Source of the DNA: Anaerolineae bacterium
Lineage (GTDB): Bacteria > Chloroflexota > Anaerolineae > Anaerolineales > Villigracilaceae
Assembly: GCA_037440905.1 (NCBI GenBank)
Contig: JBBITE010000011.1
Location: forward strand, 10,037-74,036
Length of the DNA: 64,000 nt
Reading direction: 5' to 3'
Part shown: in pieces, positions 1,885 to 64,000 of the stretch
Layout of the letters: each line of letters begins with the position of its first letter
Position numbering within the stretch: position 1 is the first letter of the stretch
Program-made: the position numbers and the translations under genes
Notes under the pieces: model-generated
Seen by the model: the letters and a program-made list of their open reading frames with translations, nothing else
What the model was told of the DNA's origin: nothing
Database searches by the model: none

Positions 1885-2397
1885 ATGACTGTTTCCTGGT
1901 ACGCGATGCGCAGCAAGCCCAACAAGGAAGAATTCCTCGCCGGTCAACTTCAGGCATACGGTGTAGAAGTCTTTCTGCCGCTTTTGCATGTCAAGCCGGT
2001 CAATCCGCGCGCGCGGCGCTTTCGTCCTTATTTCCCCAACTATCTATTCGTACACGTGGATTTGGAGCAGGTCAACATTTCCGACTTGAACTGGATGCCG
2101 GGCGCCTCGGGGCTGGTCAGTTTTGGAGGAGAACCCGCTTCTGTGCCAGACCTGCTGATTGCCGCCCTCAAAAAACAGATCGAACACTACAACGCTTCTC
2201 TGCGCGATGAACACAGCGGCTTTCAGCGCGGCGATGTTATTCTCATCGAAGACGGTCCTTTTGCGGGGTATGAAGCGGTCTTCGATGTATACACCTCCGG
2301 GCAGGAGCGCGTGCGCGTGCTGCTCAGTCTGCTTCAGCGTAGGCAAATGCCGGTTGAAATTCCGACCAGGCATGTTCGTCGTGTGAAGCGTTCTTGA
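1885..2397 (+). CDS. NusG-paralog transcription antiterminator (RfaH/UpxY/LoaP-like; NGN+KOW)
   Basis: WYAMRSKPNKE..VEVFLP..PYFPNYLFVH..PGASGLVSFG NGN domain; GDVILIEDGPFAGYEA KOW; RVRVLLSLL. Confidence 0.9.
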   Translation: MTVSWYAMRSKPNKEEFLAGQLQAYGVEVFLPLLHVKPVNPRARRFRPYFPNYLFVHVDLEQVNISDLNWMPGASGLVSFGGEPASVPDLLIAALKKQIEHYNASLRDEHSGFQRGDVILIEDGPFAGYEAVFDVYTSGQERVRVLLSLLQRRQMPVEIPTRHVRRVKRS

Positions 2398-2550
2398 AGA
2401 TGATCTAATAACCCAAAAGTCATGGGGAGGCTGCGTCCTTGAAAGCCGTGTAACTTTTATTTTTTCGAGGCGTCATGGGAATGCTCGACGATATTTAATT
2501 CTTTATTTTTGACCAGTTGTTTCTCTGCATAAGCGGAGGGAGATGAACGC

Positions 2551-4065
2551 ATGAGCATTCGTACTGAAGTGGAAAAATTTCACTTGGTTGCTGTCTCGAA
2601 GAAAATCAAAAAAGCAAACGAATTGATCCCCCGCCACATGCAATGGCTTGTGTATGTGATGGTGCTGATCCTTTCGGATGCTTTGATGACGTTCTTTGCG
2701 TTTTTGCTGGCGTATTATCTGCGTTTCAACGCTGAATTCCTTGCCTGGCTTTTCAACCAGGATGCGCAGGTTTCCTTCAAAACCTACAGCATTTTGCTCT
2801 ACTCCATGCCTTTTCTCTGGCTGGTGATCTTTGCCATGAATGGGCTGTATGCCAGAGATAACCTGCTGGGCGGCACGCAGGAATATGCGCGTGTGTTTCG
2901 CTCGATTGTGACCGGCTTCCTGCTGATCATCTTTGCCGGCTTTGTGGATACGACATTGTTCATCGCGCGCGGCTGGCTGTTCATGGCGTGGGGCTTGAAC
3001 TTCCTTTTTGTTGCCAGCGCCCGCTTTTGGCTGAGGCGCGTGGTGTATGCGCTCCGCAAATATGGGTTTTTCCTCACCCCGGCGGTTATCGTGGGCGCCA
3101 ATCAGGAAGGACGCTGGCTTGCCGAGCAGCTGCTGAAATGGGAGACCTCCGGCTTGCATCTGGTCGGCTTTGTGGATAAGAAGACGCCCGCCACCTTCCC
3201 TCTTTTCCACGACCTTGTATCGCTGGGAACCGTGGAGCAGCTGGGCGAAATCATCGAGCGGTATAACATTGGCGAGGTCATTCTGGCCTCCAGCGCCATT
3301 TCCACGCGCGATTATCTGCTGGAGATTTTCCGCAAATACGGCGTTTCGGATAAAGTCAACATCCGCATGTCCTCCGGCTTGTACGAAATTCTCACCACCG
3401 GCTTGACGGTCAATGAATTTGCTTACGTGCCTCTTGTGTACGTGAATAAAGTGCGCCTGACCGGTTCTGATACAATCCTGAAGTTTCTGCTGGACTATGT
3501 GCTGACGCTCGGCTTGTTGCTCCTCCTTTTGCCGCTGCTGCTGGTGCTGGCGATCCTGGTAAAAGTAAGTTCACCAGGACCCATCATTCACAAACGGCGG
3601 GTGATGGGGTTGAACGGCAAACAATTCTATGCCTACAAGTTCCGCACCATGGTCATCAACGGCGACGAGGTGCTGGCGCAGCATCCTGAATTGCAGGAAG
3701 AACTGGCGCGCAACCACAAGTTGAAGAACGACCCGCGCGTTACCCGTATTGGCGCCTTTTTGAGAAAGTACAGCCTGGATGAACTGCCGCAACTGTTCAA
3801 CGTCCTCAAACGGGAAATGTCGCTGGTTGGGCCGCGTATGATCTCACCCGAAGAAGTTGCCATGTACAAACAGTTCGATATGAACCTGCTCACAGTGCTG
3901 CCGGGCATCACCGGCGTCTGGCAGGTGAGCGGGCGCTCAGATATTTCCTACGAAGAGCGCGTGCGGCTGGATATGTATTACATCCGCAATTGGAGCATCT
4001 GGCTCGACCTCCAACTTCTCTTTCAAACCATCCCTGCAGTTCTCAAGAGCCGTGGGGCATACTAA
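2551..4065 (+). CDS. polyprenyl-phosphate sugar-1-phosphate transferase (WcaJ/WbaP-like initiating enzyme)
   Basis: N-terminal TMs, CoA-binding-like IVGANQEG domain, C-terminal KFRTM, DPRVTRIGAFLRKYSLDELPQLFNVL, SLVGPR, PGITGVWQVSGR. Confidence 0.95.
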   Translation: MSIRTEVEKFHLVAVSKKIKKANELIPRHMQWLVYVMVLILSDALMTFFAFLLAYYLRFNAEFLAWLFNQDAQVSFKTYSILLYSMPFLWLVIFAMNGLYARDNLLGGTQEYARVFRSIVTGFLLIIFAGFVDTTLFIARGWLFMAWGLNFLFVASARFWLRRVVYALRKYGFFLTPAVIVGANQEGRWLAEQLLKWETSGLHLVGFVDKKTPATFPLFHDLVSLGTVEQLGEIIERYNIGEVILASSAISTRDYLLEIFRKYGVSDKVNIRMSSGLYEILTTGLTVNEFAYVPLVYVNKVRLTGSDTILKFLLDYVLTLGLLLLLLPLLLVLAILVKVSSPGPIIHKRRVMGLNGKQFYAYKFRTMVINGDEVLAQHPELQEELARNHKLKNDPRVTRIGAFLRKYSLDELPQLFNVLKREMSLVGPRMISPEEVAMYKQFDMNLLTVLPGITGVWQVSGRSDISYEERVRLDMYYIRNWSIWLDLQLLFQTIPAVLKSRGAY

Positions 4066-4096
4066 AATTCACTGAACAAAAGGAAACACAAAAAAT

Positions 4097-5032
4097 ATGG
4101 CAAAAATTCTCGTCACCGGCGGCGCCGGCTTCATTGGTTCGCATGTAGTGGATTTGTTCCTCGAAAAGGGATATGAAGTTGTCATCCTCGACGACCTTTC
4201 CACTGGGCGCGAATCCAACCTCAACCCGCGGGCCAAGTTCTACAAAATGGACATTCGCAGCCCGCAAGTGCGCAGCGTCTTCGAAGCGGAAAGGCCGGAT
4301 TACATCAGCCACCATGCCGCGCAAATGGACGTGCGTCGTTCGGTTGCCCAGCCCTTGTTCGATGCCGATGTCAACATTTTGGGTTCCATCAACCTGATCG
4401 AATGCGCCAAGGAATTTGGCGTCAAGCACTTCGTCTACATCTCCACCGGCGGAGCCGTCTACGGCGAACCGGAATACGTCCCCTGCGACGAAGCGCACCC
4501 CATCAACCCCATCTGCCAGTATGGCGCCAGCAAACATACCGTCGAGCATTACCTGTTCATGTACCACGTCAATTACGGGTTGAACTACACCGTGCTGCGT
4601 TATCCCAATGTGTACGGTCCGCGGCAGGACCCGCACGGCGAAGCGGGCGTGGTAGCCATTTTCACCGGCAAAATGCTGGCGGGCGAACCCGTCACCATCA
4701 ACGGCGACGGCGAACAAACGCGCGATTTCGTCTATGTGGGCGATTGCGCCTACGCCAATTACCTCGCCGTCACCGTTGAGCATCAGCCGGGCATCTACAA
4801 CATTGGCTGGGGACGCCCCACCTCCGTCAACGACATCTTCCGCACCCTGGCAAAAGTGACCGGCTATCCCTTGCAGCCTAACTACGGTCCAGCCAAAGTC
4901 GGCGAGACGCGTCACATCTACCTCGAAGCCGGCAAAGCCAAACGCGAACTGGGCTGGACCCCCACCCTCTCCCTGGAAGAAGGCCTCGAAAAGACCGTAG
5001 CCTACTTCCGCGAATCGGAGCGAATCGCTTGA
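4097..5032 (+). CDS. NAD-dependent epimerase/dehydratase (GalE-like extended SDR)
   Basis: [44 protein letters not shown]. Confidence 0.92.
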
Positions 5033-6009
5033 TCATCGTTCAGACTCCACTCCGCATCAGTTTCTTTGGCGGCGGCACCGACTTCCCCTCCTACTTTATG
5101 GAAGAGGGCGGCTGTGTGTTAAGCTCCGCCATTGATAAATACATCTTCCTCAGCATCAAGCAGCGCTTCGATGCCAAACTGCGCATCGGCTACACCCGCA
5201 CTGAAATGGTGGATGAGGTTGACCAGATTCAACACGAACTGATTCGGGAAGCCCTGCGCGTGACCGGCATCAAAAGCGGAGTGGAGATCACCACCATGGG
5301 CGACATTCCCTCCGAAGGTTCGGGGCTGGGCTCCTCCAGCACCGTCACCGTCGGCGCCCTGCATGCCATGTACGCCTACCTCGGCGAAATCGTCTCTGCC
5401 GAACGTCTGGCGCGAGAAGCCTGCACCATCGAAATCGTCACCCTCAAAAAACCCATCGGCGTTCAGGATCAATACATCGCTGCCTATGGCGGGCTGCGCT
5501 TCATGGAATTCATGCCGGATGGCGAAGTGCGGGTGGAAAAAATAAACATCTCCACCGACGCGCGGCGCGCCCTGAACGACAACTTCCTGCTCTTCTTTAC
5601 CGGCGTCAGCCGCAAGGCAGATAACATCCTCAGCGAACAAAAGAGCAACATCAAAGACCGCCTGACCGAACTGCGCGAAATCAAACACATGGCGCATCAG
5701 GCGCGCGCCTACCTCGAAGCCGAAAACTTCGACGCTCTGGGCGAACTCTTGCACCAATCCTGGGAACTGAAAAAACGACTGGCTGGCACCATCAGCAACG
5801 GACAGATCAACGAAATGTACGAAGCGGCGCGCCGCGCCGGCGCCATTGGCGGCAAAATCGCCGGTGCGGGAGGCGGGGGGTTTCTTTTGTTGTACGTACC
5901 TTACGAACGTCAGAACAAAGTCCGCGCCGCCTTAAGCGGCCTCCAGGAACTCCCCTTCCGCCTCGAAGCAGATGGGACCAAAATCATTTTCAATTACCGT
6001 CGTTCATGA
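5029..6009 (+). CDS. hddA: GHMP kinase, D-glycero-alpha-D-manno-heptose-7-phosphate kinase-like
   Basis: [48 protein letters not shown]; adjacent to gmhA/gmhB. Confidence 0.8.
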
Positions 6010-6023
6010 AAGGATGGTCAGTT

Positions 6024-6635
6024 ATGGAACCCCTCCAGCGTTATCTTTCTGCCTTACAGCACACCATGCAAAAACTGCCGCAGCCCCTTATCGCCGAAGT
6101 CATCTACACCCTTCAGCGCGCCCGCATGCAGGGGAATCAGGTCTTCATCATGGGCAATGGCGGCTCCGCCTCCACCGCCTCTCACTTCGTCTGCGACCTT
6201 GCCAAAAACACCCGCCACACCGGCCTGCCTCACTTCCGCGCCATCGGCCTGGCAGACAACATGGAAATCTTCTCCGCCTACGCCAATGACGAAGGCTACG
6301 AAAATGTCTTCTCGCAGCAGTTACTCAACCTCGTCAAACCCGGCGACATCGTCATTGCCATCTCCGCCAGCGGCAACTCCAAAAACGTCGTCAATGCTGT
6401 GGAAGAAGCCCGTAAATGCGGCGCCTTCACCATCGGCTTCACCGGCTTCAGCGGCGGGCGCCTCGGTCAAATCGTGGACCTGCACATCCACGTCGAAAGC
6501 GACATCATCGAACACGTCGAAGATATCCACCTCATGCTCGAACACATGATCGTCCGCACCATCAAAGACCAGCCCTATATTGGCATCAACCTGCAGGCAG
6601 AAGCAAAACTCCCTGCCGAAGTGCTGGGAGATTAA
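6024..6635 (+). CDS. gmhA: phosphoheptose isomerase (SIS domain)
   Basis: [52 protein letters not shown] 6024 follows AAAGGA RBS. Confidence 0.88.
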
Positions 6636-7186
6636 CCCTCCTCCCTCAGCACAACCTCCATCGCCTGCGCCAGATCGTTACAAACCACATACCCGCTCAC
6701 CCCCGGCGGCTGAGGCAAAGCCAGTTGTTCTGCGCCCCGCCCCGTCCGCAACAGAATCGTTCCGCGCACACCCGCCGCCTGCCCCGCCTGCACATCGCTC
6801 CACGCATCGCCGATCATCCATGAACGTTTCAAATCCAACGATAACTCCCTTGCCGCCTGCAGCAATAACCCCGGCTTCGGCTTGCGGCATTCGCATTCCT
6901 CCTGCGGGCTGTGCGGGCAAAGATACACACCATCCACCCTGCCCCCCTCCGCGCGGATCAAACGCACCAGGCGGTCATTGATCTCCTCCGCCTGCTTCAG
7001 CGAAATGATCCCGCGCCCCACCGCCGACTGATTGGTCACAATCACCACCTTGTATCCATCCAGCCGCGCCAGCCTCAGCGCATCCAGCGCCTGCGGAAAC
7101 ACACTCACCTGTGACCACTCCCGCACATAGTCGGGCCGATTTTCAATCAACACGCCGTCACGATCAAGAAAAATAGCAGGAAACAT
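6632..7186 (-). CDS. gmhB: D,D-heptose-1,7-bisphosphate phosphatase (HAD)
   Basis: [29 protein letters not shown]; convergent with gmhA, stop codons overlap (TTAA). Confidence 0.9.
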
Positions 7187-7198: not shown

Positions 7199-7401
7199 CT
7201 CTTCGGAATTTTCACCCAGGCGAACTTTCTCCCCTCACAAGGCTTGACCCGCCCTGGATGCCACATGACAACACGGGACGCTCCGCCTCACCCTTACCCG
7301 CAGCCTGCTCCTGCTTCACTGGCTGGAGACGCCCTGCAGCATATCTGCCCGCCCGCTCAACCGCACCCTGTCGGAATGGCGGAGCACGCCTAAAACACAA
7401 C

Positions 7402-8148
7402 ATGCTCGAAAAACTACACCTCTACATCCGCCGTCAGGCATCCTCCATTCCGCGCTACATGTACGAACAGACCATCCTGTTCCTCTTCGGCTGGATACCC
7501 ACCCTGCTCGGCATCGGTCTGCGTGCGCTGGCGTACCGTCTCATCCTGCGCATGGACGGTCTCGCCGCCATTGAAAAAAACGTCCGCCTGCGCTTCGCCA
7601 ATTACATCAAACTTGGTCGCGGCGTTTACATAGATGAAGGCGCCTACCTGCATGCCTGCCCGCAAGGCATCGAAATTGGCGACAACACCATCGTCATGCA
7701 CGGCGCCGTGCTGCATGTGTACAACTTTCGTAATATGCCGCACTCCCGCATCACAATCGGAAAAGACAGCCTCATCGGTGAATACTCCGTCATTCGCGGG
7801 CAGGGCGGCGTGACCATCGGCGACCGCGTGTACACCTCCCCTTTCACCCAAATCATCGCCGTCAACCACGTTTTCGACGACCCCAGCCGCCCCTTCGTCG
7901 AGCAGGGAATCACGGCCGAGGGCATCGTCATCGAAGATGACGTCTGGCTGGGAGCCGGCGCGGTGATTACCGATGGTGTCCGCGTGGGCAAGGGAGCGGT
8001 AGTGGCGGCGGGCGCGGTTGTCACCAAAGACGTTCCCCCGCACACGGTGGTGGGCGGCGTGCCAGCCAAACCAATCAAAAACATGGACGGGAGCATCAGC
8101 AACCCTGAGAGAAAAATTTTTCATACAACGAAGGATGGAGGCTTATGA
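7402..8148 (+). CDS. left-handed beta-helix O-acyltransferase (WcaF/LacA-like)
   Basis: Hexapeptide repeats ([28 protein letters not shown]), [30 protein letters not shown] 7402 preferred over 7258. Confidence 0.9.
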
Positions 8149-9341
8149 CGATCTTATCTGTGGTCATTCCCGCATACAACGAAGAAAACGGCATCAAACA
8201 AATTGCCGAACGCGTGCTTGCCGTCGAACCGGCGCTCAAAGCGGTGGGCATCGAACGCCTGGAACTGCTCGTCGTGGACGACGGCTCGAAAGACAAAACG
8301 GCTGAAGTCGCGGCGGGCATCCCCGGCGTCACCCTGATTCGCCACCCCAAAAATCGAGGTTATGGCGCGGCGCTGAAGACCGGCTTCTCTAAAGCCAGCG
8401 GCGAATTGATTGGCTTTCTGGATGCCGATGGCACCTACCCGCCGGAATACTTCCCCCAACTATGCCAATCGGCCCTCAACGGCTCGGAACTGGTCATCGG
8501 CTCGCGCATGGCAGGCGCCGACAGCAAAATGCCCCTCACGCGCCGCATCGGTAACTTCTTTTTTGCCAACCTGCTCTCGCTTCTTGGCCGCCAAAAAGTG
8601 ACCGACAGCGCCAGCGGCATGCGCGTTTTCAAACGTGAAATCCTCGAACAAATCTACCCCCTGCCCGATGGCTTGAACCTGACCCCGGTCATGAGCACGC
8701 GCGCCCTGCACGAAGGCATTCGCGTTGTCGAGGTCCCCATCCCCTACAGCGAACGTGTCGGGCGCTCCAAACTCAGCGTCATCCGCGATGGTCAAATCTT
8801 CCTGCAAAGCATGTTGTGGACTGCCATGTCCTACAACCCGGTGCGCATCCTCGGCCTGGTGGGCTTGGCGGGCTTTGGCATTGCCGGGTTGATCTTTTTG
8901 TGGCTGCTTACCCTCCGCCTCAACGGCGTGACCACCCTCGGACCCGGCGGGGTGCTCGCCCTGTTCACTGCCATGGTTGCCTCCATCGCCGGGCTGAATA
9001 TCTTTGCCCTGGGCGTCACCTTCAATTACCTGGTTTCGTTGTTCTACAAGCGCCCCATCCGCCAGGGATTGTTCGGCAAACCCATCTTCAAAACGCCCCT
9101 CGACCGGCAGTTCGGCTGGATGGGCATCGCCTCCATGCTGCTTGGGTTGATTGTGGCGGTGACATCCTTTTTGTTGAGCATGAACGGCTGGGCAATTGAC
9201 CGCTTGTGGTTCTACCTGCTGGGGAGCGCCATGCTCTTTCTGGCAGGCATTCAACTGTTCATCTACTGGCTGTTGCTGCGCATTCTCGAAGAACTTAGCC
9301 AGCGTGAAGTCCGCACCAGGCATGATATGGGCCTGGCGTAA
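8145..9341 (+). CDS. GT2 glycosyltransferase, polyprenol-phosphate glycosyltransferase (DPM1-like) with C-terminal TMs
   Basis: [54 protein letters not shown]; about 4 C-terminal TM helices. Confidence 0.9.
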
Positions 9342-9407
9342 TTGTTTCAATCAATCGGTAATTCAGAGAAGATATTTCGTTTAGAGAGTATAGAAGGAGA
9401 GAATACA

Positions 9408-11072
9408 ATGACTATGAACGACCCCCAATCTGTCAACATGGGAAGCCGTCTGACCCCAAAACTGCGCATGGTGGATTTCCCCAATGCCGATACCATCGTC
9501 CGCAATGGATTGCTCGCCGCGCCGCGCTCGGAAGAAGCAGTGGATATCATGCTCGTCAACCCTCCCACCCCCGATGGCGGGCTGTGGATTCGCACCCAAC
9601 ACCGCGTCGGGCGGCGCACGCGCGAAAACATGGTTTGGCCCCAGGTCTCACTGGCGCAAATGGCGGCGTTGCTCCACCCCGTGTACAAAGTCAAAGTGGT
9701 GGATTGCAACGCCGAACGCATGGGCTGGCCCGAATTCACCCAACTGTTGGATAAATACCAGCCCAAATACTACCTCACCCAACTGACCGCTCCCACCCTC
9801 GAAAACGACATGTACGGGTGTTTCCTGGCACACGCCCGCGGCGCGAAGACCATCGCCTTTGGCACGCACATCACCCCCATCCCTGTCGAGACCATGCGCC
9901 CCTACCCCAGCCTCGACTTTGGCCTGGTCGGTGAACCGGACCTGACCATCCGCGACCTGCTCGACCACCTCGAAGGCAAATTCGACCAGCGTTCTCCGCA
10001 CATTCAGAAGATGTTCGAAAAGCAGGACCCCTCCTACAAGCCCTCTCTCAACCCGGATGGGTCGGTCAACATGCACGGCATCAAAGGCATTGCCTGGCGC
10101 AAGGGCGATCAAATCATCCTCAATCCCCCGCGTCCCTTTGTCGCTGATTTGGACGATATGCCCATCCCCATGCACGAACTGCTGCCGCTGCAGAAATACC
10201 GCATGCCCTACATCAAGGGTCCCTTCACCTTTATCGTCACCAGCCGCGGCTGCCCGGCGGGATGCACCTACTGCATTAAACACGTCAGTTACCAGTATTC
10301 CACCCGCATCCGCTCGCCCAAACTCATCATGGAAGAGTTGTGGCGGTTGAAAAAACTCGGCATCAACAACATCCACATGTACGCCGACTTGTTCACCGTC
10401 AACCGCGACCAGGTCGTCGAACTGTGCAAACTCATGATTGAGCAAAACATCAAAATCAAGTGGACCTGCAACAGCCGCGTGGACTTCGTGGACGAAGAAA
10501 TGCTCACCCTCATGGGCAAAGCCGGCTGCCGCCTGATTTCCTGGGGCATCGAAAGCGGCAACGAACAAATCCTCAAACATGCCCGCAAAGGCGCCTACCC
10601 CGATAAAGCCGAGCGCGCCCTGCGCTGGGCAAAGAAAGCCGGCATCATGAACTGGGGCTACTTTATCATCGGCTTGCCCGGCGAGACGGAAGAAACCATC
10701 CGTCAGACGATTGACTTTGCCAAGAAACTGCCGCTCGATATTGCGCTCTTCCATGTCGCCGCGCCCTACCCCGGCACGCCCTTCTTCTTCGAAGTGGTCG
10801 AAAACAAATGGTTCCGCCCTGGCACCCGCTGGGAACAGGTGGACATGGACAAAGGCACCGTGTTGGATTACCCCAACCTGCCCGCCGAAAAACTGCTCTA
10901 CTGGCAAAAACGCGCCTTCCGCGAATGGGCGTTCCGCCCCGGGCCCATGCTGACCTACCTCAAAATGTTGACCTACGACTGGGCGACAACGAAAACCGCC
11001 ATCAACGTCGGCTTGCAGCACCTGTTCTGGGCGACCTCCGATTCCGGCGCGCCGGTGGGCGGAGCCAGTTAA
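9408..11072 (+). CDS. cobalamin-binding radical SAM protein (HpnJ-like/class B)
   Basis: LVNPP N-terminus, B12-binding domain (FGTHIT), SRGCPAGCTYC (CxxxCxxC), WGIESG, FIIGLPGET, AAPYPGT; AAGGAG RBS before ATG 9408. Confidence 0.88.
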   Translation: MTMNDPQSVNMGSRLTPKLRMVDFPNADTIVRNGLLAAPRSEEAVDIMLVNPPTPDGGLWIRTQHRVGRRTRENMVWPQVSLAQMAALLHPVYKVKVVDCNAERMGWPEFTQLLDKYQPKYYLTQLTAPTLENDMYGCFLAHARGAKTIAFGTHITPIPVETMRPYPSLDFGLVGEPDLTIRDLLDHLEGKFDQRSPHIQKMFEKQDPSYKPSLNPDGSVNMHGIKGIAWRKGDQIILNPPRPFVADLDDMPIPMHELLPLQKYRMPYIKGPFTFIVTSRGCPAGCTYCIKHVSYQYSTRIRSPKLIMEELWRLKKLGINNIHMYADLFTVNRDQVVELCKLMIEQNIKIKWTCNSRVDFVDEEMLTLMGKAGCRLISWGIESGNEQILKHARKGAYPDKAERALRWAKKAGIMNWGYFIIGLPGETEETIRQTIDFAKKLPLDIALFHVAAPYPGTPFFFEVVENKWFRPGTRWEQVDMDKGTVLDYPNLPAEKLLYWQKRAFREWAFRPGPMLTYLKMLTYDWATTKTAINVGLQHLFWATSDSGAPVGGAS

Positions 11073-17146: not shown

Positions 17147-17154
17147 GAAACCTG

Positions 17155-44923: not shown

Positions 44924-44931
44924 GGGGGGAA

Positions 44932-44971: not shown

Positions 44972-45003
44972 GACAACCAGAGAAAAAGGAAAGGAGTAGG
45001 AAC

Positions 45004-45394: not shown

Positions 45395-45470
45395 GCGTAT
45401 TGGGCGTTCTCTAACGCCGAATTTGCGCAAGAGAGCGCAAAGTACGCAGGGTTTTCGTGATCCACGAAAA
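45395..45470. repeat. REP-like copy 3 plus CGCAAAG-type periodic units and an 8-bp hairpin
   Basis: GGCGTT-CTCT-AACGCC (45403-45418); GCGCAAGAGAGCGCAAAGTACGCAGG; TTTTCGTG-ATC-CACGAAAA (45452-45470). Confidence 0.55.
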
Positions 45471-45488
45471 TTGGTGAAAGTACAGAAA

Positions 45489-49800: not shown

Positions 49801-49807
49801 GCCGCCC

Positions 49808-53738: not shown

Positions 53739-53802
53739 AGGAGCCAAACCATTTGAGAGCGTCCGCCTGGTGTTGTGTTGGGTGGTATTTTGGAGTAACA
53801 CT

Positions 53803-54351: not shown

Positions 54352-54525
54352 GGTCAAGAAATGCTTCAGGCTAATTGCCGTCCAATACCGCCCGCAGCGG
54401 ACAGGCGGATATGCTCCCTGCCTGAAGGGAATCTACCTCTGTTTTCTACGCTCGGCGTTTTTCCTGCCGCACCCTTCACCCGCTAGTAACGTAAGCCGTT
54501 GATATTGGTATCGGAGAAAAAACAC

Positions 54526-56067: not shown

Positions 56068-57644
56068 TGGGAGGCCTCATGGCAGGAAAATTGCTGGTTC
56101 TGGCGGGAACGATCCTCAGCGTACTGTTGTCCGTTTGGGGAACGCGCCGCGCCTCTGCAAAAGTCCATGCGCTGATTCTCAATCTCTTTGCCGCTTATGC
56201 GCTGGTGTGGATTGGCTTTACCGTTTACCTGTGGTTCAATCACATCCATTTTCCTTTGAACCTCGAGGCGATGGAACTGCTCATGCTTCAGCACCTGCGC
56301 CGGCTGATGGCTGGGCTTCCAATTTACGTCGAACCCTCTCCCGATTTTGTTCCCCTTGTTTACGCGCCGCTCTATTATTATCTTTCGGTGCCTTTTGCCT
56401 GGTTGTTTGGCGCCAACCTGTTCAGCATGCGGCTGGTTGCCATTCTGGGAATGCTGGGGGCGGGCGTGGTTCTCTTCCTGGCGGTGAAAAAGCGCACCGC
56501 CTCCACGTGGTGGGCGCTCATTGCGGCGGGCCTCTTTGCCGCATCCTACCGCGCCATGGATACCTACCTCGATAACGCGCATTCCGACTCATGGTTGTTA
56601 TTCACCGTTTTGCTGAGCTGTTATCTGATTGACCTGAACCGCTCGCGCACCACCAACCTGCTGGGAGTGTTTTTTCTGGTCGTTTCCTTTTGGTTCAAAC
56701 AGCACGGCGCCCTGTTTGCCGTGGGCGGAGTGTTGTACCTCACCTGGCGGGAGGGCATCAAACACTCGTGGGCTTATTGGGCGCTGGCGGCGCTGCTCGG
56801 CCCGCTGCTGTATGCCCTGGCGCCCTCGCTGATGTTTGGACCTCAGTTTCATTACTACACCCTCATTGTTCCCAGCCAGTGGAGCGCGGTCAATTTGGCC
56901 GGCATCAAACGTTACATCGGGTATGCCGTCAAGAACTATTTTGTGCTTGCCTCCGCAGGCACAACGGCTGCGCTCGTTTCCCTGTTGCGCAAGTGGAAGG
57001 AAGCGGGCATTTGGTATTTCATGTTTCCCTTTGCGGCGCTGAGCGGCTTTCTTGGAGCAATGGATGACGGCTCCAACAACAACATTTTCATCCCCGTTGC
57101 CACCTGGTTCATCCTCGCGGGCGTTTTGGGGCTGCAATATGCCGCTGAACATTTTCCCTGGGTCAAAAGGTGGGCGCTGCATCTTCTGGCTGTGGGAGCC
57201 TCATTTGCCCTGCTTTTCTATAACCCTGCCACCGTCCTTGTCTCCCCCAGAGCGCCGCAAGCCTATCAGGACTTTCTTCAATACCTGAATTCTTTGAACG
57301 GACAAGTCTATGCTCCCTGGATCGGCCCTCTGCAGGATGGATACGATTTCCAGCCTGCCGTCCATTGGGTGCCAATGGAAGACCTGATTCGCGGTCCTGG
57401 TGTGGATGAATACAATCATCCCACCACACGCAAACTGCTCGAAGCCGTCCTTCATCCCGCTGGCCCCGCTTATATTTTGATGAACTACCCCCTCGAAAAC
57501 GATGCGCTCTTGAGTTTTCTTCTGGAAGACTATCGCCTCAAAGAAGACCTGGGGGAACGCTTCGCGCCTCTTTCCACGCTGCCGAGACGCTTCGACTTGC
57601 AATACCCCCGCTACCTCTATGAATACGTTCCCCCTCAACCCTAA
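56067..57644 (+). CDS. GT-C-like multi-pass membrane protein
   Basis: About 12 TMs; LEAME, YAPLYY, AHSDSW, FKQHG; alternative start 56079. Confidence 0.7.
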   Translation: MGGLMAGKLLVLAGTILSVLLSVWGTRRASAKVHALILNLFAAYALVWIGFTVYLWFNHIHFPLNLEAMELLMLQHLRRLMAGLPIYVEPSPDFVPLVYAPLYYYLSVPFAWLFGANLFSMRLVAILGMLGAGVVLFLAVKKRTASTWWALIAAGLFAASYRAMDTYLDNAHSDSWLLFTVLLSCYLIDLNRSRTTNLLGVFFLVVSFWFKQHGALFAVGGVLYLTWREGIKHSWAYWALAALLGPLLYALAPSLMFGPQFHYYTLIVPSQWSAVNLAGIKRYIGYAVKNYFVLASAGTTAALVSLLRKWKEAGIWYFMFPFAALSGFLGAMDDGSNNNIFIPVATWFILAGVLGLQYAAEHFPWVKRWALHLLAVGASFALLFYNPATVLVSPRAPQAYQDFLQYLNSLNGQVYAPWIGPLQDGYDFQPAVHWVPMEDLIRGPGVDEYNHPTTRKLLEAVLHPAGPAYILMNYPLENDALLSFLLEDYRLKEDLGERFAPLSTLPRRFDLQYPRYLYEYVPPQP

Positions 57645-57659: not shown

Positions 57660-60524
57660 ATGACCCGCCACCATTCCCACCTCACCCTCAACAGCGAATA
57701 CGGCAGGAACCGCGCCGGCGATGGGCGCAACCTCTCCCTCACCCGCCGCGAATTCCTGCAAACCGGCATGGTCCTCCTCAGCGGCGCCGTCTTGCCGCGT
57801 TTCCTTGCCGACCTGAGCGCCGGCGGTTTGGCGCAGGAATTCAGCGGCAAACGCATTTACATCGCCCCCGATGATCACACCGACCTCTTCTGGTCTGCCG
57901 ACCTGCCCGCCTACGAGCAGGCTTTCCTCGACATGCTCGACTACTACCTCGACCTGGCAGACCGCACACAAAACGAACCGCCCGAATTCCAAAGCCGCTG
58001 GAACTGTGATGGCAGTTTTTGGGTGTGGGTGTACGAGAAGAAAAAATCACCGGCAGCGTTCAACCGCCTCATCGAACGCATCCGCAGCGGACACATCAGC
58101 ATGCCCCTCAACGCCCTGTGCATCTGCCTGGGCGGTGCGCCTGCCGAGGCGGTTCTGCGCGGCATGTATTACCCCGGCAAACTGGAGCGGCGCTACAACC
58201 TGCGCTTCCCCATCGCCTACTCCATGGAAAACCAGACCCTGCCCTTCGGCTTGGGCGCACTGTGGGCGGGCGCCGGCGCAACCTTTAGTTGGAAGGGCAT
58301 TTGCGATTGCGCCACCAAAGTCCCCGATGCCTGGGACCGCGAACACGACATCTACTGGTGGGCGGGCGCCGATGGCAGCCGCCTGCTTATGAAATGGAAC
58401 TCCATGCTCACCGGCAACCAGGGCATGGGCGGTTACGCCGAGGCGCGCTATCCCGACCAGGTGGTCAACTACGTAGATTCCGACGAGGCGTTCAAAGCCC
58501 GTTACCCCTACCAGGTCATTGGCGCTTTTGGTCATGGCTGGGACGACCTGCAAACCCAAACCGACGAATTTGTCACCACAGCCAAGAACCTCTCCAATCA
58601 AAACTTCAAAGTCATCGTCTCCAACGAAATAGACTTTGCCCACGACTTCGAAAAAACCTACGGAAGCGACATCCCCTCCCTCTCCGCCAGTTTCGGCAAC
58701 GAATGGGACCTCGACTGCGCCAGCCTGGCGGAAGTCTCGGCGCGCATCAAACGCGCGGTGGAAAAACTGCGCACCGCCGAAAGCCTGGCAGCGCTGGTCT
58801 CGCTCAAACAAAACGACTTCATGCGCGGCCGTGAAGAAGCGCGCGACCAGGCATGGATGAACCTGGGGCTGTATTGGGAACACAACTTTCAAGGCGCCCC
58901 CTGGGAAAACCACGTTCAAAACAGCATCGCATGGCATCGCCGCATCACGGGCGAAGTCGAAGCCTACGTCAACACCCTGCACGACGACGCCCTGCGCGTC
59001 CTCGGCGGCATGATTCACAAAAGCGGCGCGAACGAGCGCTTCTTCGTCTTCAACCCGCTGGGCTGGGCGCGCACCGATTATGCCGATTACCCCTACGACG
59101 GCGCCGAACCCGTCCACGTTGTCAGCGTGGATGAGGAACGGGAAACGCCGAGCCAGGTCATCGTCAAAGACGGGAAGCGTTGGCTGCGCATCCTGGCGGA
59201 GAACATCCCCTCGGTCGGGTATAAAGTCTTCGAGATTCGCCCCGGCGCCGGTCAGCCGTTCTCCAGCGAGATGAACGTCCGCGCGGGCGTGATCGAAAAC
59301 CGCTTCTACAAAGTGACGGTGGATGGACGCGGCGCGGTGACCAGCCTGATTGACAAGACGCGCGGCCGCCGCGAACTGGCGGCGGAAATCAACGGACGCT
59401 TCATCAATGACCTGGGGCCGGGCGCCGGCAATTTGACCTTGGAAAACGCTGGCAGCGTCTCTGCCACCCTGCTCGCCTCAGCCGAGTCTCCGCTCGCCCA
59501 TGAGACGCGCATCACTCTGTTTCGGGATATAGACCGCATCGAAATCCGCAACGACATCATCCAGAATTTCAATGCCACCAGCACCTGGGGCTTTGGCTTT
59601 GCAGTGCAGAACCCGGTGGTGCATCACGAAGAGGTGGGCGCGATTCTGCGGGCGCGGCTCACCACCGAAGGCGGACATTACTCGCCGCGCAACGCCCGCT
59701 ACGACTGGCTCACCCTCAACCATTTTGCCGATCTCAGCGGCGAAGCGGGCGGAGTGACCCTTTCCAACGCCGATTGCTATTTCATGAAAGTGGGGAACAG
59801 CACGGTGGGCGAATTGGATACCTCCACGCCGCAACTCTCCGTGCTGATTGGCGGCAACGACCTGAACGGCGGCGGCGTGCTGGGCGACCAGGGCGGAGAC
59901 GAGCGTTTCCTGCAGCGCTTTGCCCTGCGCGCCCACGAAGCCTATAGCCCTGTGGCGGCGATGAAGTTCGCCCTCGAACATCAAAACCCGCTTGCAACGG
60001 GAAACGTGCAAGGCGGAAGTGAGTATCCCGAAGGCGCATATTCGCTGCTGACAGTGGATAACCCCAACGTTCTTCTCTGGGCATTGAAGCCCGCAGAAGA
60101 GGGGCTCGAAGCCGGGCTGGTTGTTCGGGTGTGGAAGGTTTCCGAAGGCGCCGAAAGCCTGTCGGTATCGCTCGAGGGCGGAATCGCCGAAGCGCTGGCG
60201 CTGACGCACATCGAAACTCCCGCGGCGATTGCTGCTGTGGAGGAGGGCAGGCTGGTGGATGTCATCCAACCGCAGCAAATGAAGACGTATGCCGTCTTCC
60301 CGTCTGCCCTGCCGTTTCGTCCCGATACCAGCGGGCTGGAGCGCGTCACCGCCACGCCGCCGGCGGCCACCTCCCTCCCGCCTGCCGATACCACAACTCC
60401 TCCCCCTGCCTCTGTAACGAACACCCCGCCACCCCCGTCATTTACACAGACGGCAGAACCCGCCGAACCAGGCGGCAAAGGATGTTTGTTTGGATTGTTG
60501 TCCATATTGGGCTTGCTGAAATAA
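57660..60524 (+). CDS. Tat-exported GH38 (alpha-mannosidase)-like glycoside hydrolase with Pro/Thr linker and Cys-containing hydrophobic tail
   Basis: LTRREFLQ Tat motif; DDHTDLFW and RWNCDGSF N-terminal metal/catalytic-type motifs; VFNPLGWAR, IENRFYKV, GAVTSLIDK GH38 C-terminal-like motifs; ends GGKGCLFGLLSILGLLK. Confidence 0.75.
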   Translation: MTRHHSHLTLNSEYGRNRAGDGRNLSLTRREFLQTGMVLLSGAVLPRFLADLSAGGLAQEFSGKRIYIAPDDHTDLFWSADLPAYEQAFLDMLDYYLDLADRTQNEPPEFQSRWNCDGSFWVWVYEKKKSPAAFNRLIERIRSGHISMPLNALCICLGGAPAEAVLRGMYYPGKLERRYNLRFPIAYSMENQTLPFGLGALWAGAGATFSWKGICDCATKVPDAWDREHDIYWWAGADGSRLLMKWNSMLTGNQGMGGYAEARYPDQVVNYVDSDEAFKARYPYQVIGAFGHGWDDLQTQTDEFVTTAKNLSNQNFKVIVSNEIDFAHDFEKTYGSDIPSLSASFGNEWDLDCASLAEVSARIKRAVEKLRTAESLAALVSLKQNDFMRGREEARDQAWMNLGLYWEHNFQGAPWENHVQNSIAWHRRITGEVEAYVNTLHDDALRVLGGMIHKSGANERFFVFNPLGWARTDYADYPYDGAEPVHVVSVDEERETPSQVIVKDGKRWLRILAENIPSVGYKVFEIRPGAGQPFSSEMNVRAGVIENRFYKVTVDGRGAVTSLIDKTRGRRELAAEINGRFINDLGPGAGNLTLENAGSVSATLLASAESPLAHETRITLFRDIDRIEIRNDIIQNFNATSTWGFGFAVQNPVVHHEEVGAILRARLTTEGGHYSPRNARYDWLTLNHFADLSGEAGGVTLSNADCYFMKVGNSTVGELDTSTPQLSVLIGGNDLNGGGVLGDQGGDERFLQRFALRAHEAYSPVAAMKFALEHQNPLATGNVQGGSEYPEGAYSLLTVDNPNVLLWALKPAEEGLEAGLVVRVWKVSEGAESLSVSLEGGIAEALALTHIETPAAIAAVEEGRLVDVIQPQQMKTYAVFPSALPFRPDTSGLERVTATPPAATSLPPADTTTPPPASVTNTPPPPSFTQTAEPAEPGGKGCLFGLLSILGLLK

Positions 60525-60702
60525 CGGCTGTAACGGATGGTATTCCGCAAAAAGTGACTTTAGCCACTTGAAGCGGGTACTTATAGCCGCTACGATAATC
60601 ACAGTACAGCGTGCTACGGCGCTTCGATTGTTGCAGGGAATTCAAAGAACGTTTCAAACGCTCCCACACCGTTTACGCAGGGAAACAGAAAGGAAGATAC
60701 TC

Positions 60703-61686
60703 ATGGATCAGGTCAGAATTGGAGTCATCGGTACCGGCAGGATGGGTCAGAGCCACTGCCGCGTGTATTCGAATTTGAGGCACGCGAAATTCATCGGAAT
60801 TTGCGATTCCAACCCAGAAGTGGGCAAGGAGATGGCGCGCCGTCACGAGGTCTCGTTTTTCAGAGAGGTGGACGCCCTGCTCGAAAACGTGGACGCCGTC
60901 AGCGTTTGCACCCCCACGCCCTATCACTATGAAATCGTCAAGCGCTGCCTCGATGCGGGAGTCCATGTGTTGGTGGAGAAGCCGTTCACCGAAACGCTGG
61001 AGCAGGCTGAGGCGTTGAAAGACGCGGCATCCAAAGGCGGGGCAATCGTGCAGGTGGGGCATATCGAAAAATTCAACCCCGCCTTCATCGAATTGCGGAA
61101 AGTGCTGGAAGGCATGGACGTGCTGGCGATGAACTTCAACCGCCTGAGTCCCTTCCAGGGCAGCAACGTGGACGTGGACGTGGTCCTCGACCTGATGATC
61201 CACGACATCGGTCTGGTGGTGGACCTGTTCGAGAACGAGCCGCTCTCGGTGGATGCGCACGGCTTTGCCGTCTTCACCGACAGCATTGACTACGGCATGG
61301 CGGTCTTGAAATATGCGCCCGAAATTTTGCTCACCCTCACCGCCTCGCGCGTGACCGAACAAAAGATTCGCGCCATTTCCGTCACCACGCGCGAGGCTTA
61401 CATCGAGGCAGACTTGCTGCACAAGACCATCGAAGTGCACCGCCGCACTCTGGGCGATTACGTCAACTATAAGAATAGTCACAAATACCGCCAGGAAAGC
61501 CTGATCGAGCGCATTGTCGTCCCCACGATGGAACCGCTGTTCCTCGAACTGCAGGATTTCGTCACCTGCGTTGCCGAAGGCAAGACCCCCCAGGTCACCG
61601 CGGCAGATGGCTACAACGCCCTGCGCTTCGTCCTGCTCCTGCGCGACAAAATTTTAGAATCCCGAAGGATGCAAAGTCAAGCATGA
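60703..61686 (+). CDS. Gfo/Idh/MocA oxidoreductase (WbpB/WlbA-like)
   Basis: GVIGTGRMG, CTPTPYH, VLVEKP, VGHIEKFNP, DLMIHDI; AAGGA RBS before ATG 60703. Confidence 0.85.
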   Translation: MDQVRIGVIGTGRMGQSHCRVYSNLRHAKFIGICDSNPEVGKEMARRHEVSFFREVDALLENVDAVSVCTPTPYHYEIVKRCLDAGVHVLVEKPFTETLEQAEALKDAASKGGAIVQVGHIEKFNPAFIELRKVLEGMDVLAMNFNRLSPFQGSNVDVDVVLDLMIHDIGLVVDLFENEPLSVDAHGFAVFTDSIDYGMAVLKYAPEILLTLTASRVTEQKIRAISVTTREAYIEADLLHKTIEVHRRTLGDYVNYKNSHKYRQESLIERIVVPTMEPLFLELQDFVTCVAEGKTPQVTAADGYNALRFVLLLRDKILESRRMQSQA

Positions 61687-62447
61687 AACTTTCGATTGTC
61701 GTACCCTGCTTTAATGAAGAGGATAATATCGAGAAACTGAAGAACGAATTCTTTCCGGTGGTCGAAAGCCTGCTGGGAAGAGCGGTGGACGGCAAAGCCA
61801 TTGACGCCATCGAAATCATCTTCGTAGATGATGGCAGCCGTGACGGCACCTACAACGCCCTCAAGCAAGCCTTTGGCGCGTATGCGCATCCGTCCATCGA
61901 GGTCAAGTTCGAAAAGCACGAAGTCAATCGCGGGCTGGGCGCAGCCATCCGCACCGGCTTCAAAGCGGTAAGCGGCGACGTTATCGTCACCACCGACAGC
62001 GACGGCACGTATCACTTCTCCACCATCCCCGCCATGCTCGAACACCTCAAAGGCGATGTCGCCATCGTCACCGCCTCGCCCTACCACCCCAAAGGGGAGG
62101 TGGTGGGCGTGCCGGGCTACCGCATCTTTCTCAGCCGCGGCTCGTCTCTGCTCTACCGCATTTTGCTCAGTTGGAAGGTGCACACCTACACCGCCCTCTA
62201 CCGCGCCTACCGCCGCGAAGTGATCGAGCGCATCTCTTTCTCCGCCGATGACTTCCTGGGCGGTACGGAACTCATGGTCAAAGCCATGCTCAAAGGCTAC
62301 CGTGTGGACGAATTTCCCGCCGCGCTGCACCGCCGCATGTTCGGCGTTTCCAAAGCCAAACTGCTCAAAACCATCAAATCGCATCTTGGCTTTCAGCTGC
62401 GGCTGATTTTGCACCGCCTGCGCCTCCGCTCCATGTTTGCAGACTGA
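61683..62447 (+). CDS. GT2 polyprenol-phosphate glycosyltransferase (DPM1-like, soluble)
   Basis: VVPCFNEE, VDDGSRD, NRGLGAAIRTG, TDSDGTY, RMFGVSK. Confidence 0.88.
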   Translation: MKLSIVVPCFNEEDNIEKLKNEFFPVVESLLGRAVDGKAIDAIEIIFVDDGSRDGTYNALKQAFGAYAHPSIEVKFEKHEVNRGLGAAIRTGFKAVSGDVIVTTDSDGTYHFSTIPAMLEHLKGDVAIVTASPYHPKGEVVGVPGYRIFLSRGSSLLYRILLSWKVHTYTALYRAYRREVIERISFSADDFLGGTELMVKAMLKGYRVDEFPAALHRRMFGVSKAKLLKTIKSHLGFQLRLILHRLRLRSMFAD

Positions 62448-62457
62448 CCGAACTCAC

Positions 62458-62481
62458 GCAGGACACCGTTCCTGCTTTTTT
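62458..62481 (+). terminator. intrinsic terminator inside the operon
   Basis: GCAGGA-CACCGT-TCCTGC hairpin followed by TTTTTT, 17 nt before the next ATG. Confidence 0.65.
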
Positions 62482-62498
62482 ATGAAAGGAAATCTACT

Positions 62499-63104
62499 AT
62501 GGGTGTAAGAATTCATCCTACTGCCGAAGTGTCAGACAAGGCAAAAATCGGGGAGGGCTCGAGCATCTGGCATCATGCCCAGGTGCGCGAAAATGCCGTC
62601 ATCGGCGAAAACTGCATCATCGGCAAAGGCGTCTATGTAGATGCGGGGGTTGTCATCGGCAACAACGTCAAAATCCAAAACTACGTTTCCGTCTATCACG
62701 GGCTGACCATCGAAGACGGCGTCTTTGTCGGACCTCACGTCTGTTTCACCAACGACATGCGTCCCCGCGCCGTCAACCCCGACGGTTCGCTCAAAGCCGC
62801 CGACGACTGGGTGCTGAGCGAAACACGCATCAAGCGCGGCGCGGCGCTGGGCGCCAACTCCACCATCCGCTGCGGCATCACCATCGGCGAGTGGGCCATG
62901 GTTGGCTCCGGCAGCGTCGTCACCAAAGACGTGCCCGCCTATGGCCTGGTGTATGGCAACCCGGCGCGCCTGCATGGGTTTGTCTGTGCCTGCGGCGAAA
63001 TCACCGCAAAGGTTTCGCAAAACGAACAGGCAGTCACCGTCCAATGCCCAAAGTGCAAACGTACAATGGACATTTCCATTCAAGATTGGGAGAAACTACA
63101 ATGA
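62499..63104 (+). CDS. N-acetyltransferase, left-handed beta-helix (WbpD/WlbB-like)
   Basis: [37 protein letters not shown]-terminal CxC..CxxC. Confidence 0.88.
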
Positions 63105-64000
63105 TTCACATGGCAAAACCCCAAATTGGGGCAGAAGAAAAACAAGCCGTTTTGGAAGTGTTGGAGTCCGGCATCATTGCCCAGGGTCCGCGCGTCAAAG
63201 CCTTCGAGGAAGGCTTCGCCCAAATGTGCGGCGTCAACCATGCCGTTGCCACCTCGTCCGGCACCACGGCGCTGCATGTGGCGCTGCTGGCGCACGGCAT
63301 CGGCAACGGAGACGAAGTCATCACCTCCGCCTTCACCTTCATCGCCTCTGCCAACAGCGTTTTATACGCCGGCGCCAAACCGGTCTTTGTGGATATTGAC
63401 CCGCGCACCTTCAACCTGGACCCCAGCCAGATCGAAGCCGCCATCACGCCTCGGACCAAAGCCATTCTCCCGGTTCATCTCTACGGCTTAGCCTGCGATA
63501 TGGACCCGATCCTCAGCCTCGCCGAAAAATACGGGCTGATCGTCATTGAAGACGCCTGCCAGAGCCATGGCGCAACCTACAAAGGGAAAAAGGTCGGCTC
63601 TTTTGGCACCGGCACCTTTTCGCTGTACCCCACCAAAAACATGACCTCCGGCGAGGGCGGCATGATCACCACGAACGATGCGGCGATTGACGAAAAGTGC
63701 CGTGTGATTCGCCAGCATGGTATGCGCGTCCGCTACTATCACGATGAACTCGGCTTCAACTTCCGCATGACCGACATCCACGCCGCCATTGGTCTGGCGC
63801 AGCTGCACAAACTGGAACAGTTCAACGCCAAGCGCCAGGCAAACGCCCAATTCCTGAGCGAAAACCTCAAAGGCGTGGTGACGCCGTTCGTGCCGGAGGG
63901 GCAGACCCATGTCTTTCACCAGTACACCATCCGCGTCCCCGATGGGAAGCGTGACGCGTTGAGGAATCACTTGCAGGAAAGAGGCGTCGGCTCCGAAGTG
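63101..64000 (+). CDS. DegT/DnrJ/EryC1/StrS sugar aminotransferase (WbpE/WlbC-like), runs off window end
   Basis: Not in ORF track. [38 protein letters not shown] (PLP Lys)..GEGG..GFNFRM; ATG overlaps previous TGA. Confidence 0.92.

Follow-up and report, generated by a model that had tools for sequence, protein, structure and literature searches.

The locus described here raises the question of what a probable monoderm builds with more than 60 kb of surface-glycan genes, and onto which acceptor the product is placed. It lies in a stretch of 64,000 nucleotides (the window) on contig JBBITE010000011.1 of the Anaerolineae bacterium assembly GCA_037440905.1, which an earlier note had read as a system that glycosylates surface proteins or a cell-wall polymer. 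All long open reading frames (ORFs) of the window were scanned against Pfam, and most of them against NCBIfam. Their domain content makes it very probable that the locus encodes an ABC-transporter-dependent heteroglycan pathway that is finished on the outer face of the cytoplasmic membrane. Protein is the single most likely acceptor, a preference that we hold tentatively.

The scans confirmed the gene content of a glycan locus of more than 60 kb at the positions proposed in the earlier note. Including 1.4 kb past the window end, the locus measures ~63.5 kb and holds ~49 genes in nearly one direction. Between 1876 and 64000 there are 47 plus-strand genes and 1 minus-strand gene; adjacent genes overlap by 1-4 nt at 13 of the 47 junctions, and a gap of >90 nt separates them at only 7. 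The description of ~47 co-oriented, overlapping genes holds for the plus strand, the exception being the GmhB-like gene at 6632-7186 on the minus strand, and the proposed limits of 1885-64000 were too narrow, as the locus runs on to one more glycosyltransferase (GT) of family GT4 outside the window (C11:74227-75450, in coordinates of the contig) and then stops. This enzyme is the 7th GT4 of a locus whose window portion encodes 6 GT2 and 6 GT4 enzymes, and the upstream neighbours of the locus are unrelated housekeeping genes. Among 49 ORFs no match was obtained to Wzx (Polysacc_synt/MVIN), Wzz/Wzc, lipid A or outer-membrane families, in agreement with the earlier note. A Wzx/Wzy-dependent pathway was ruled out, since the locus lacks a MOP-family Wzx flippase and a Wzz/polysaccharide co-polymerase (PCP). 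In contrast, the initiating transferase, Wzt/Wzm, the two Wzy_C proteins, the two DPM-like GT2s and the tailoring set that had been proposed were all found by the domain scans. The genes on which the argument turns are these:

1876-2397, plus strand: NusG paralog, RfaH/UpxY-like (Pfam NusG), which also opens the locus in relatives
2551-4065, plus strand: initiating polyprenyl-phosphate hexose-1-phosphate transferase of the WbaP/WsaP type, with 4-5 transmembrane (TM) segments (Bac_transf and CoA_binding_3)
11148-12947, plus strand: membrane protein with Wzy_C and TPR matches in Pfam (Wzy_C-TPR), a candidate ligase or oligosaccharyltransferase
12963-15611, plus strand: BNR1, a secreted tandem beta-propeller with a disordered stalk and a C-terminal TM anchor (Pfam BNR_2)
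15590-17146, plus strand: BNR2, a secreted propeller anchored by a C-terminal TM segment and carrying a Pro/Thr/Ser stalk (BNR/Asp-box)
23252-25287, plus strand: Wzt (ABC_tran and Wzt_C) and Wzm (ABC2_membrane), all above the Pfam cut-offs
34679-36115, plus strand: second Wzy_C protein, without TPR (Pfam Wzy_C)

The carbohydrate-binding Wzt_C domain scored 42.3 bits against a Pfam cut-off of 30.4, and the Wzt/Wzm region also gave TagH-, Wzt- and KpsM-like NCBIfam matches. The priming transferase reached 403.9 bits with the NCBIfam model TIGR03025, over the cut-off of 295.6. For the NusG paralog, the NCBIfam scores were 98.9 bits with the RfaH model TIGR01955 (cut-off 144.5) and 67.7 bits with UpxY (cut-off 100); because its NGN domain is present and the RfaH/UpxY equivalog level is not reached, we treat it as a NusG paralog of unassigned subfamily.

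To place the Wzy_C-TPR protein in the membrane we relied on an AlphaFold2 (AF2) model (39 homologues; pLDDT 82.5, pTM 0.83), in which we see 13 TM helices, a loop spanning residues 266-330 and, at the C-terminus, a TPR domain (475-594). R285, R291 and H329 in this loop are invariant across the 39 homologues. Loops rich in Lys/Arg at 364-368 and 413-427 identify the cytoplasmic side, and therefore the Wzy_C loop and the TPR domain are predicted to face outward. At least 411 homologues occur in metagenomes, all of them uncharacterised. The second Wzy_C protein is better conserved (53-93% identity in all 10 genomes tested, where the two genes invariably share a contig), and the whole genome holds 3 Wzy_C genes.

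BNR1 and BNR2 directly follow the Wzy_C-TPR gene. In the AF2 model of BNR1 (pLDDT 84), two beta-propellers are accompanied by a disordered stalk (823-852) and a TM helix (853-877). All BNR1 and BNR2 orthologues (12 for BNR1) retain a plan of signal peptide, one or more propellers, disordered Pro/Ser/Thr stalk, C-terminal TM helix and basic tail. We also observed that a motif [KQR]-N-[LIV]-x-G at the start of the C-terminal TM helix of BNR1 (~15500-15611) is kept despite divergent stalks, and that many BNR2 orthologues carry N-P-[AG]-x-P at the corresponding place (~17040-17146). The combination of motif, TM helix and basic tail is reminiscent of a sortase/exosortase-type sorting signal.

Comparison with related genomes, which the earlier note had suggested as a check, showed that the locus is collinear in relatives. 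Close Wzy_C-TPR homologues were found in 14 genomes, each of them metagenome-assembled and labelled Anaerolineales, Anaerolinea or Chloroflexota, in line with the taxonomic placement of the host. Two of these genomes (G002, DYID01000015; G003, JACAET010000052) are collinear with the locus over its full length, from the NusG paralog through DegT to the last GT4, and a third (G006) is largely so. A core module is present in 14 of 14 loci, as far as each retrieved stretch reaches, in the order NusG paralog, priming transferase, SDR, HddA-like, GmhA-like, GmhB-like (minus strand), acetyltransferase, GT2 and radical SAM enzyme, followed by Wzy_C-TPR, BNR1, BNR2, AsnB-like (in some genomes), Wzt, Wzm and GT2. 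The adjacency of Wzy_C-TPR, BNR1 and BNR2 is kept in all 12 loci that extend past Wzy_C-TPR. These three proteins are only 38-74%, 36-82% and 33-81% identical in relatives, respectively, compared with 85-97% for the radical SAM enzyme, and such fast divergence is expected for exposed, interacting surface components.

The closest described counterparts are the slg clusters for S-layer glycosylation of Geobacillus stearothermophilus NRS 2004/3a, Paenibacillus alvei CCM 2051T and Aneurinibacillus thermoaerophilus, where priming falls to a WbaP-like enzyme (WsaP/WsfP), export to Wzm/Wzt and transfer to a Wzy_C protein (WsaB/WsfB); WsfB carries a TPR at its C-terminus, and P. alvei also has an Asn-synthase homologue, WsfA (PMC2943079). 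The earlier note's analogy to this layout was accurate: our locus has the same primer type, exporter, Wzy_C protein with TPR and Asn-synthase homologue, in tightly packed overlapping genes and a probable monoderm host. One slg species makes a heptose-containing glycan (PMC2943079), which recalls the heptose-type genes found here. The locus differs in being about three to four times larger, in belonging to a different phylum, in encoding two Wzy_C proteins and in lacking an SLH or recognisable S-layer gene. Beyond the slg repertoire, it encodes GT-C/undecaprenyl-phosphate (Und-P)-sugar side-chain systems, Thr-nucleophile sulfatase-fold enzymes, a B12 radical SAM enzyme, a sulfotransferase and the NusG paralog. 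The features shared with slg clusters and the constant adjacency of Wzy_C-TPR, BNR1 and BNR2 are the reasons why protein is favoured as the acceptor. By genes alone, the candidates are BNR1, BNR2 and a beta-helix protein downstream, and no SLH-type S-layer acceptor is among them. In the same phylum, the Litorilinea archaellin carries probable O-glycans on Thr66 and Thr145 made by unidentified machinery (PMC12488501).

The host genome bears on the same question. The assembly (3.25 Mb, 115 contigs) is 98% complete, and neither LpxC nor Omp85/BamA was found in it, with control genomes responding as expected; a 16S rRNA gene is also missing from the assembly. The host is thus probably a monoderm, as the earlier note had proposed, and a diderm with lipid A genes, which it had named as the contrary case, is not what the genome resembles. 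A lipopolysaccharide O-antigen was rejected as the product, since without LpxC and Omp85 the lipid A-core acceptor and the outer membrane are lacking. The locus does resemble ABC-dependent O-antigen systems of the Escherichia coli O8/O9a type in its Wzm/Wzt with Wzt_C, in the Arg/His residues of the Wzy_C-family loop and in a long operon headed by a NusG paralog. It differs from that type, which uses WaaL, in the two missing families and in having as ligase candidate a Wzy_C protein of 13 TM helices with a TPR domain predicted to face outward.

The precursor-supply and cytoplasmic assembly steps of the predicted pathway draw on the following genes:

4097-5032, plus strand: NAD-dependent sugar epimerase/dehydratase, a GalE-like SDR (Pfam Epimerase; GalE 201.9 bits, below cut-off)
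5029-6009, plus strand: HddA-like GHMP kinase (168 bits against an equivalog cut-off of 600)
6006-6635, plus strand: GmhA-like SIS isomerase (115 bits against an equivalog cut-off of 209)
6632-7186, minus strand: GmhB-like HAD heptose-bisphosphate phosphatase, the sole minus-strand gene (NF006506, 176.4 bits against a cut-off of 178)
7258-8148, plus strand: hexapeptide acetyltransferase
8145-9341, plus strand: TM-anchored GT2 resembling Und-P-sugar synthases (AglJ/DPM/ArnC-like, with C-terminal TM helices)
9342-11072, plus strand: B12-binding radical SAM enzyme (HpnJ-like at 215 bits, far under the cut-off of 578)
17143-18915 and 18929-20698, plus strand: two AsnB-like adenylating amidotransferase homologues (Asn_synthase)
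20695-22101, plus strand: GT2 (Pfam/NCBIfam)
22114-23229, plus strand: ATP-grasp ligase (Pfam/NCBIfam)
25291-34609, plus strand: block of seven glycosyltransferase genes (Pfam), starting at 25291 (GT2), 26876 (GT4), ~28200 (GT4), 29535 (GT4), 30973 (GT2-TPR), 32205 (GT4) and 33434 (GT4)
36135-36890, plus strand: sugar-1-phosphate nucleotidyltransferase (weak RmlA match, 69 bits against a cut-off of 320)
36891-37847, plus strand: GT2
37935-39167, plus strand: GT4
40577-41752, plus strand: phosphopentomutase (515 bits against an NCBIfam cut-off of 256)
41805-42872, plus strand: WecB UDP-GlcNAc 2-epimerase (above the NCBIfam cut-off)
42972-44294, plus strand: FAD amine-oxidase-fold oxidoreductase of the PRK07233 type (above the NCBIfam cut-off)
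60568-61686, plus strand: UDP-GlcNAc 3-dehydrogenase-like protein
61683-62447, plus strand: DPM-like GT2 (DPM/ArnC/AglJ-like)
62499-63104, plus strand: NeuD/PglB-type N-acetyltransferase
63101 to beyond 64000, plus strand: DegT aminotransferase

Judged by these domains, dedicated enzymes would supply NDP-heptose, UDP-ManNAc and a 2,3-diacetamido sugar. The earlier note had named GDP-heptose and a diacetamido-uronate. For the heptose, HddA-, GmhA- and GmhB-like genes are present and make GDP-heptose plausible; their scores lie below the equivalog cut-offs and do not establish the GDP part, and the nucleotidyltransferase at 36135-36890 was not assigned to HddC by NCBIfam. The minus orientation of the GmhB-like gene is kept in all 13 relatives whose retrieved locus reaches it. 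For the diacetamido-uronate, the 3-dehydrogenase, aminotransferase and N-acetyltransferase are encoded, but no UDP-sugar 6-dehydrogenase lies in the window; 3 such genes occur elsewhere in the genome. RmlC and RmlD families gave no match, so the window holds no dTDP-rhamnose gene set. The WbaP-type transferase would then prime polyprenyl phosphate, ~12 cytoplasmic GT2/GT4 enzymes would lengthen the chain, and the sulfotransferase, the AsnB-like and ATP-grasp ligases, the acetyltransferases and the B12 radical SAM enzyme would modify it in the cytoplasm. Wzm/Wzt would export the completed lipid-linked chain. In known systems, Wzt_C recognises a chain-terminating cap, and its presence here implies that a terminal cap is recognised, which the sulfotransferase might speculatively supply.

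The steps on the outer face would involve a second group of genes, listed here together with the sulfotransferase and further secreted proteins:

39226-40575, plus strand: PMT/PMT_2-type GT-C (PF02366, 41.5 bits against a cut-off of 22.7)
44309-44923, plus strand: cytoplasmic sulfotransferase (Pfam)
45423-47330, plus strand: NPP-type phosphodiesterase (Phosphodiest domain)
47327-47944, plus strand: small protein of the alkaline-phosphatase (AP) fold
47953-51646, plus strand: two membrane-anchored sulfatase-fold proteins with four N-terminal TM helices each (Pfam Sulfatase)
51643-53658, plus strand: secreted protein with a Tat signal
53770-54351, plus strand: small Thr/Pro-rich lipoprotein-like protein
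54499-56067, plus strand: PMT_2 GT-C (Pfam)
56067-57644, plus strand: unassigned polytopic membrane protein, possibly a GT-C (no Pfam/NCBIfam match)
57660-60524, plus strand: secreted protein of 954 aa with a Tat signal, a Thr/Pro-rich tail and a short hydrophobic C-terminus

We propose that, outside, a Wzy_C-family enzyme moves the glycan onto an acceptor other than lipid A, that the DPM-like GT2s and PMT-like GT-Cs add side-chain sugars from polyprenyl-phosphate sugars, that the two Thr-nucleophile sulfatase-fold enzymes add phospho- or sulfo-substituents, and that trimming or organisation of the product falls to the secreted hydrolase-like proteins and the propellers. Two of the three GT-Cs of the earlier note were recovered as PMT-like proteins; the third (56067-57644) has no family match, was negative in pairwise BLASTP and aligned only weakly with its GT-C neighbour at 54499-56067 in hhalign (E = 0.01). 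Both sulfatase-fold proteins have Thr at the formylglycine Cys position (T-L-T-S-H and T-Q-P-S-H, compared with C/S-x-P-x-R in true sulfatases) and give partial EptA/MCR-like matches; by sequence they match sulfatases and EptA, not LtaS models. They belong to the alkaline-phosphatase superfamily as members with a Thr nucleophile, and are likely to act as transferases of the EptA/LtaS functional type. An APS kinase is encoded elsewhere in the genome. Assignment of the 954-aa protein to GH38 was not confirmed, as the C-terminal similarity is faint, all family scores are below threshold and no PDB sequence matches. Protein O-mannosylation in actinobacteria (Ppm1 and PMT) resembles the locus, which likewise has a DPM-like GT2, a PMT-family GT-C (PF02366) and a monoderm host whose secreted proteins often bear Pro/Thr/Ser linkers; here, however, the genes sit within a polysaccharide operon and have no NCBIfam assignment.

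Downstream of the last GT4 and beyond the window, a gene on the same strand (C11:75574-78724) encodes a secreted protein of at least 1050 aa that runs off the contig and carries Chlam_PMP beta-helix repeats and InlB B-repeats. Its orthologue in G002 is 82% identical at the same position, and G006 has two paralogs within the locus, directly upstream of the second Wzy_C gene. This beta-helix protein is a candidate surface glycoprotein or polysaccharide-processing enzyme.

In the most specific form of the protein reading, Wzy_C-TPR would act like WsfB/WsaB and O-glycosylate surface proteins, most plausibly the adjacent BNR1 and BNR2. Taken to its full extent, as a protein O-glycosylation machine of an Anaerolineales clade in which Wzy_C-TPR puts a capped heptose/diacetamido polysaccharide on the BNR stalks and the remodelled product forms one of the chemically undefined outer envelope layers of filamentous Chloroflexota, the proposal is unlikely. 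A number of results weigh against the protein reading as such. SLH domains are absent from the genome (controls as expected) and no S-layer gene is identifiable, which does not exclude S-layer proteins lacking SLH. The stalks are mainly enriched in Pro, two- to three-fold (0.12-0.19 against 0.05), while Ser plus Thr rises only ~1.4-fold (0.19-0.23 against 0.15). The Thr/Pro-linker surface proteins of the earlier note are present but not special to the locus: ~95 of ~2600 crude ORFs genome-wide reach ≥60% Thr+Pro+Ser in a 30-residue window, mostly just after an N-terminal hydrophobic segment. Such linkers were therefore rejected as a locus-specific signal; secreted proteins of this organism carry them generally. 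The structural neighbours of BNR1 in Foldseek are sugar-binding lectins, sialidases, sortilin and polysaccharide lyases, a generic propeller signal, and because its fold is like that of carbohydrate-binding or -cleaving propellers, BNR1 and BNR2 may be machinery and not substrates. Neither Wzy_C protein has a PglL_A domain, only Wzy_C/TPR families appearing at E up to 10, and Wzy_C domains occur also in polymerases and lipid-directed ligases. Foldseek of the Wzy_C-TPR model against the PDB and the 39-sequence profile against PDB sequences returned TPR proteins only, and single-sequence searches with each Wzy_C protein gave no match, all of which is uninformative for the membrane domain. The favoured scheme does not account for the second Wzy_C. 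The locus is also accessory and patchy, not a general Anaerolineae envelope feature: every one of the 6 genomes of the genus has an orthologue of the radical SAM enzyme, ~18 genomes from the family's other genera have none, further orthologues are scattered over other families and classes, and Wzy_C-TPR turns up in 21 of the order's 121 genomes. Two LCP (LytR-CpsA-Psr) genes lie on other contigs, and these ligases make a polymer anchored to peptidoglycan equally feasible.

A secondary cell-wall polysaccharide, anchored to the wall or to a lipid as in the rhamnose-rich polysaccharides of streptococci and lactococci, is accordingly a serious competitor, if a doubtful one. It would be exported by Wzm/Wzt, decorated by Und-P-sugar synthase/GT-C pairs and LtaS/GacH-like enzymes, and attached either to peptidoglycan by an unlinked LCP protein or to a membrane glycolipid by a Wzy_C ligase, with the propellers, whose fold recalls lectins, sialidases and lyases, as processing or assembly factors. 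The locus resembles these systems just as much as it does slg clusters: the gac, rgp and cwps loci share an ABC-dependent backbone pathway, a GT-A Und-P-sugar synthase with GT-C for side chains and a membrane-anchored transferase of the alkaline-phosphatase superfamily (GacH), and the lcp genes of Lactococcus lactis likewise lie away from the cwps cluster (PMC9574508); the two DPM-like GT2s, two or three GT-Cs and two four-TM Thr-nucleophile sulfatase-fold proteins of the window fit this pattern. However, those loci need no Wzy_C protein, whereas two are conserved in the relatives examined, and ours has no rml genes or rhamnan, a primer of the WbaP type found in slg clusters and not the WecA/GacO type, and sulfatase-fold proteins outside the LtaS family by sequence. 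Much less probable is a secreted exopolysaccharide or sheath polymer without covalent attachment, in which the Wzy_C proteins would be polymerases or release factors and the propellers and beta-helix proteins depolymerases or chain-length controllers, as in many exopolysaccharide operons. The patchy distribution, with no other genus of the family represented, the match of the priming transferase to the EPS_sugtrans model, the hydrolase-, lyase- and lectin-like folds encoded in and beside the locus, and the shared outer layers of undefined composition in filamentous Chloroflexota (PMC13319060) would suit such a polymer. Against it stand the lack of Wzx, PCP/Wzc or a synthase-type exporter, the fact that ABC-exported polymers stay lipid-linked until a transferase acts, and the conserved Arg/His residues of the Wzy_C loop, which fit transfer onto an acceptor.

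Any of these acceptors could be combined with a further, rather unlikely, arrangement in which two pathways are fused in one operon: an older compact cluster would make a short diacetamido-sugar/ManNAc glycan through the second Wzy_C, and an Anaerolineales-specific module (Wzy_C-TPR, BNR1/2, Wzm/Wzt and extra GTs) would make or attach a second one. In five distant Chloroflexota (G186, G204, G236, G252, G341), genes of both window ends stand together within ~25 kb beside the trio of acetyltransferase, GT2 and radical SAM enzyme. These clusters comprise this trio, a priming transferase, 3-dehydrogenase, WecB, DPM-like GT2, acetyltransferase, FAD oxidoreductase, DegT, GT4, a second-type Wzy_C (28-31% identical) and GT2. 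Three of the five are without Wzy_C-TPR, and 2 of these are also without Wzm/Wzt. The two Wzy_C proteins of the window have nothing beyond the catalytic motif in common and differ greatly in evolutionary rate, which speaks for a fusion. On the other side, the window encodes a single priming transferase, shows no flippase for a second lipid-linked oligosaccharide, and the distant genomes were viewed over 40 kb each. Because of the compact clusters, we regard the window locus as an expanded, possibly composite, form of an older cluster, which suggests that it grew to 63 kb by module insertion. Foreign origin judged by base composition was rejected, the G+C content of the locus (58.3%) lying inside the genome's own spread (57.1% overall). 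A protein acceptor remains our first choice for the exported chain.

Several observations stand apart from the acceptor question. No part of the locus is conserved as deeply as the trio at 7258-11072, which recurs in the distant clusters; the radical SAM enzyme is 85-97% identical in the 13 related loci that hold it, where its neighbours reach 36-80%, and 60-79% identical in other Chloroflexota families. The AsnB-like paralogs, otherwise diverged, share 257 bp of perfect identity (17311-17567 and 19085-19341, checked base by base) and a further 53 bp (17596-17648 and 19370-19422), consistent with recent gene conversion. The phosphopentomutase and the PRK07233-type FAD oxidoreductase are 81-94% identical in relatives, and their presence in a glycan locus hints at a precursor of pentose or furanose type. 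The largest intergenic gap (44924-45423, 499 nt) starts with a purine-rich imperfect repeat of GAAAGTAGA-like units, holds a small ORF for a hydrophobic peptide and may contain an internal promoter.

Together, these results indicate that the slg-type layout of WbaP-like primer, ABC exporter and Wzy_C transferase exists outside Bacillota, and the description that suits the system best is that of an assembly line for ABC-dependent glycans, slg-like but enlarged by tailoring modules, in a different phylum. Among the papers searched, none connects Chloroflexota with an O-antigen ligase or a cluster of this kind. Members of the Chloroflexota are abundant monoderms, for the most part uncultured, in which cryo-tomography reveals several envelope layers of undefined composition, such as the inner, outer and proteinaceous layers of Litorilinea (PMC13319060), and the locus family offers concrete candidates for study in the form of a ligase with a TPR domain predicted to face outward, constant propeller neighbours and a rich tailoring set. 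Its accessory status within its own family rules the locus out as a general foundation of the Chloroflexota envelope. This accessory character and the fast-evolving exposed parts suggest that it probably sets strain-specific surface identity, for instance towards phages, grazers or in aggregation, a role as core envelope component being less likely. Large surface-glycan loci are common; this one is large, conserved, uncharacterised and open to experiment, and if Wzy_C-TPR does glycosylate the BNR stalks, it would be the first O-oligosaccharyltransferase system defined in the phylum.

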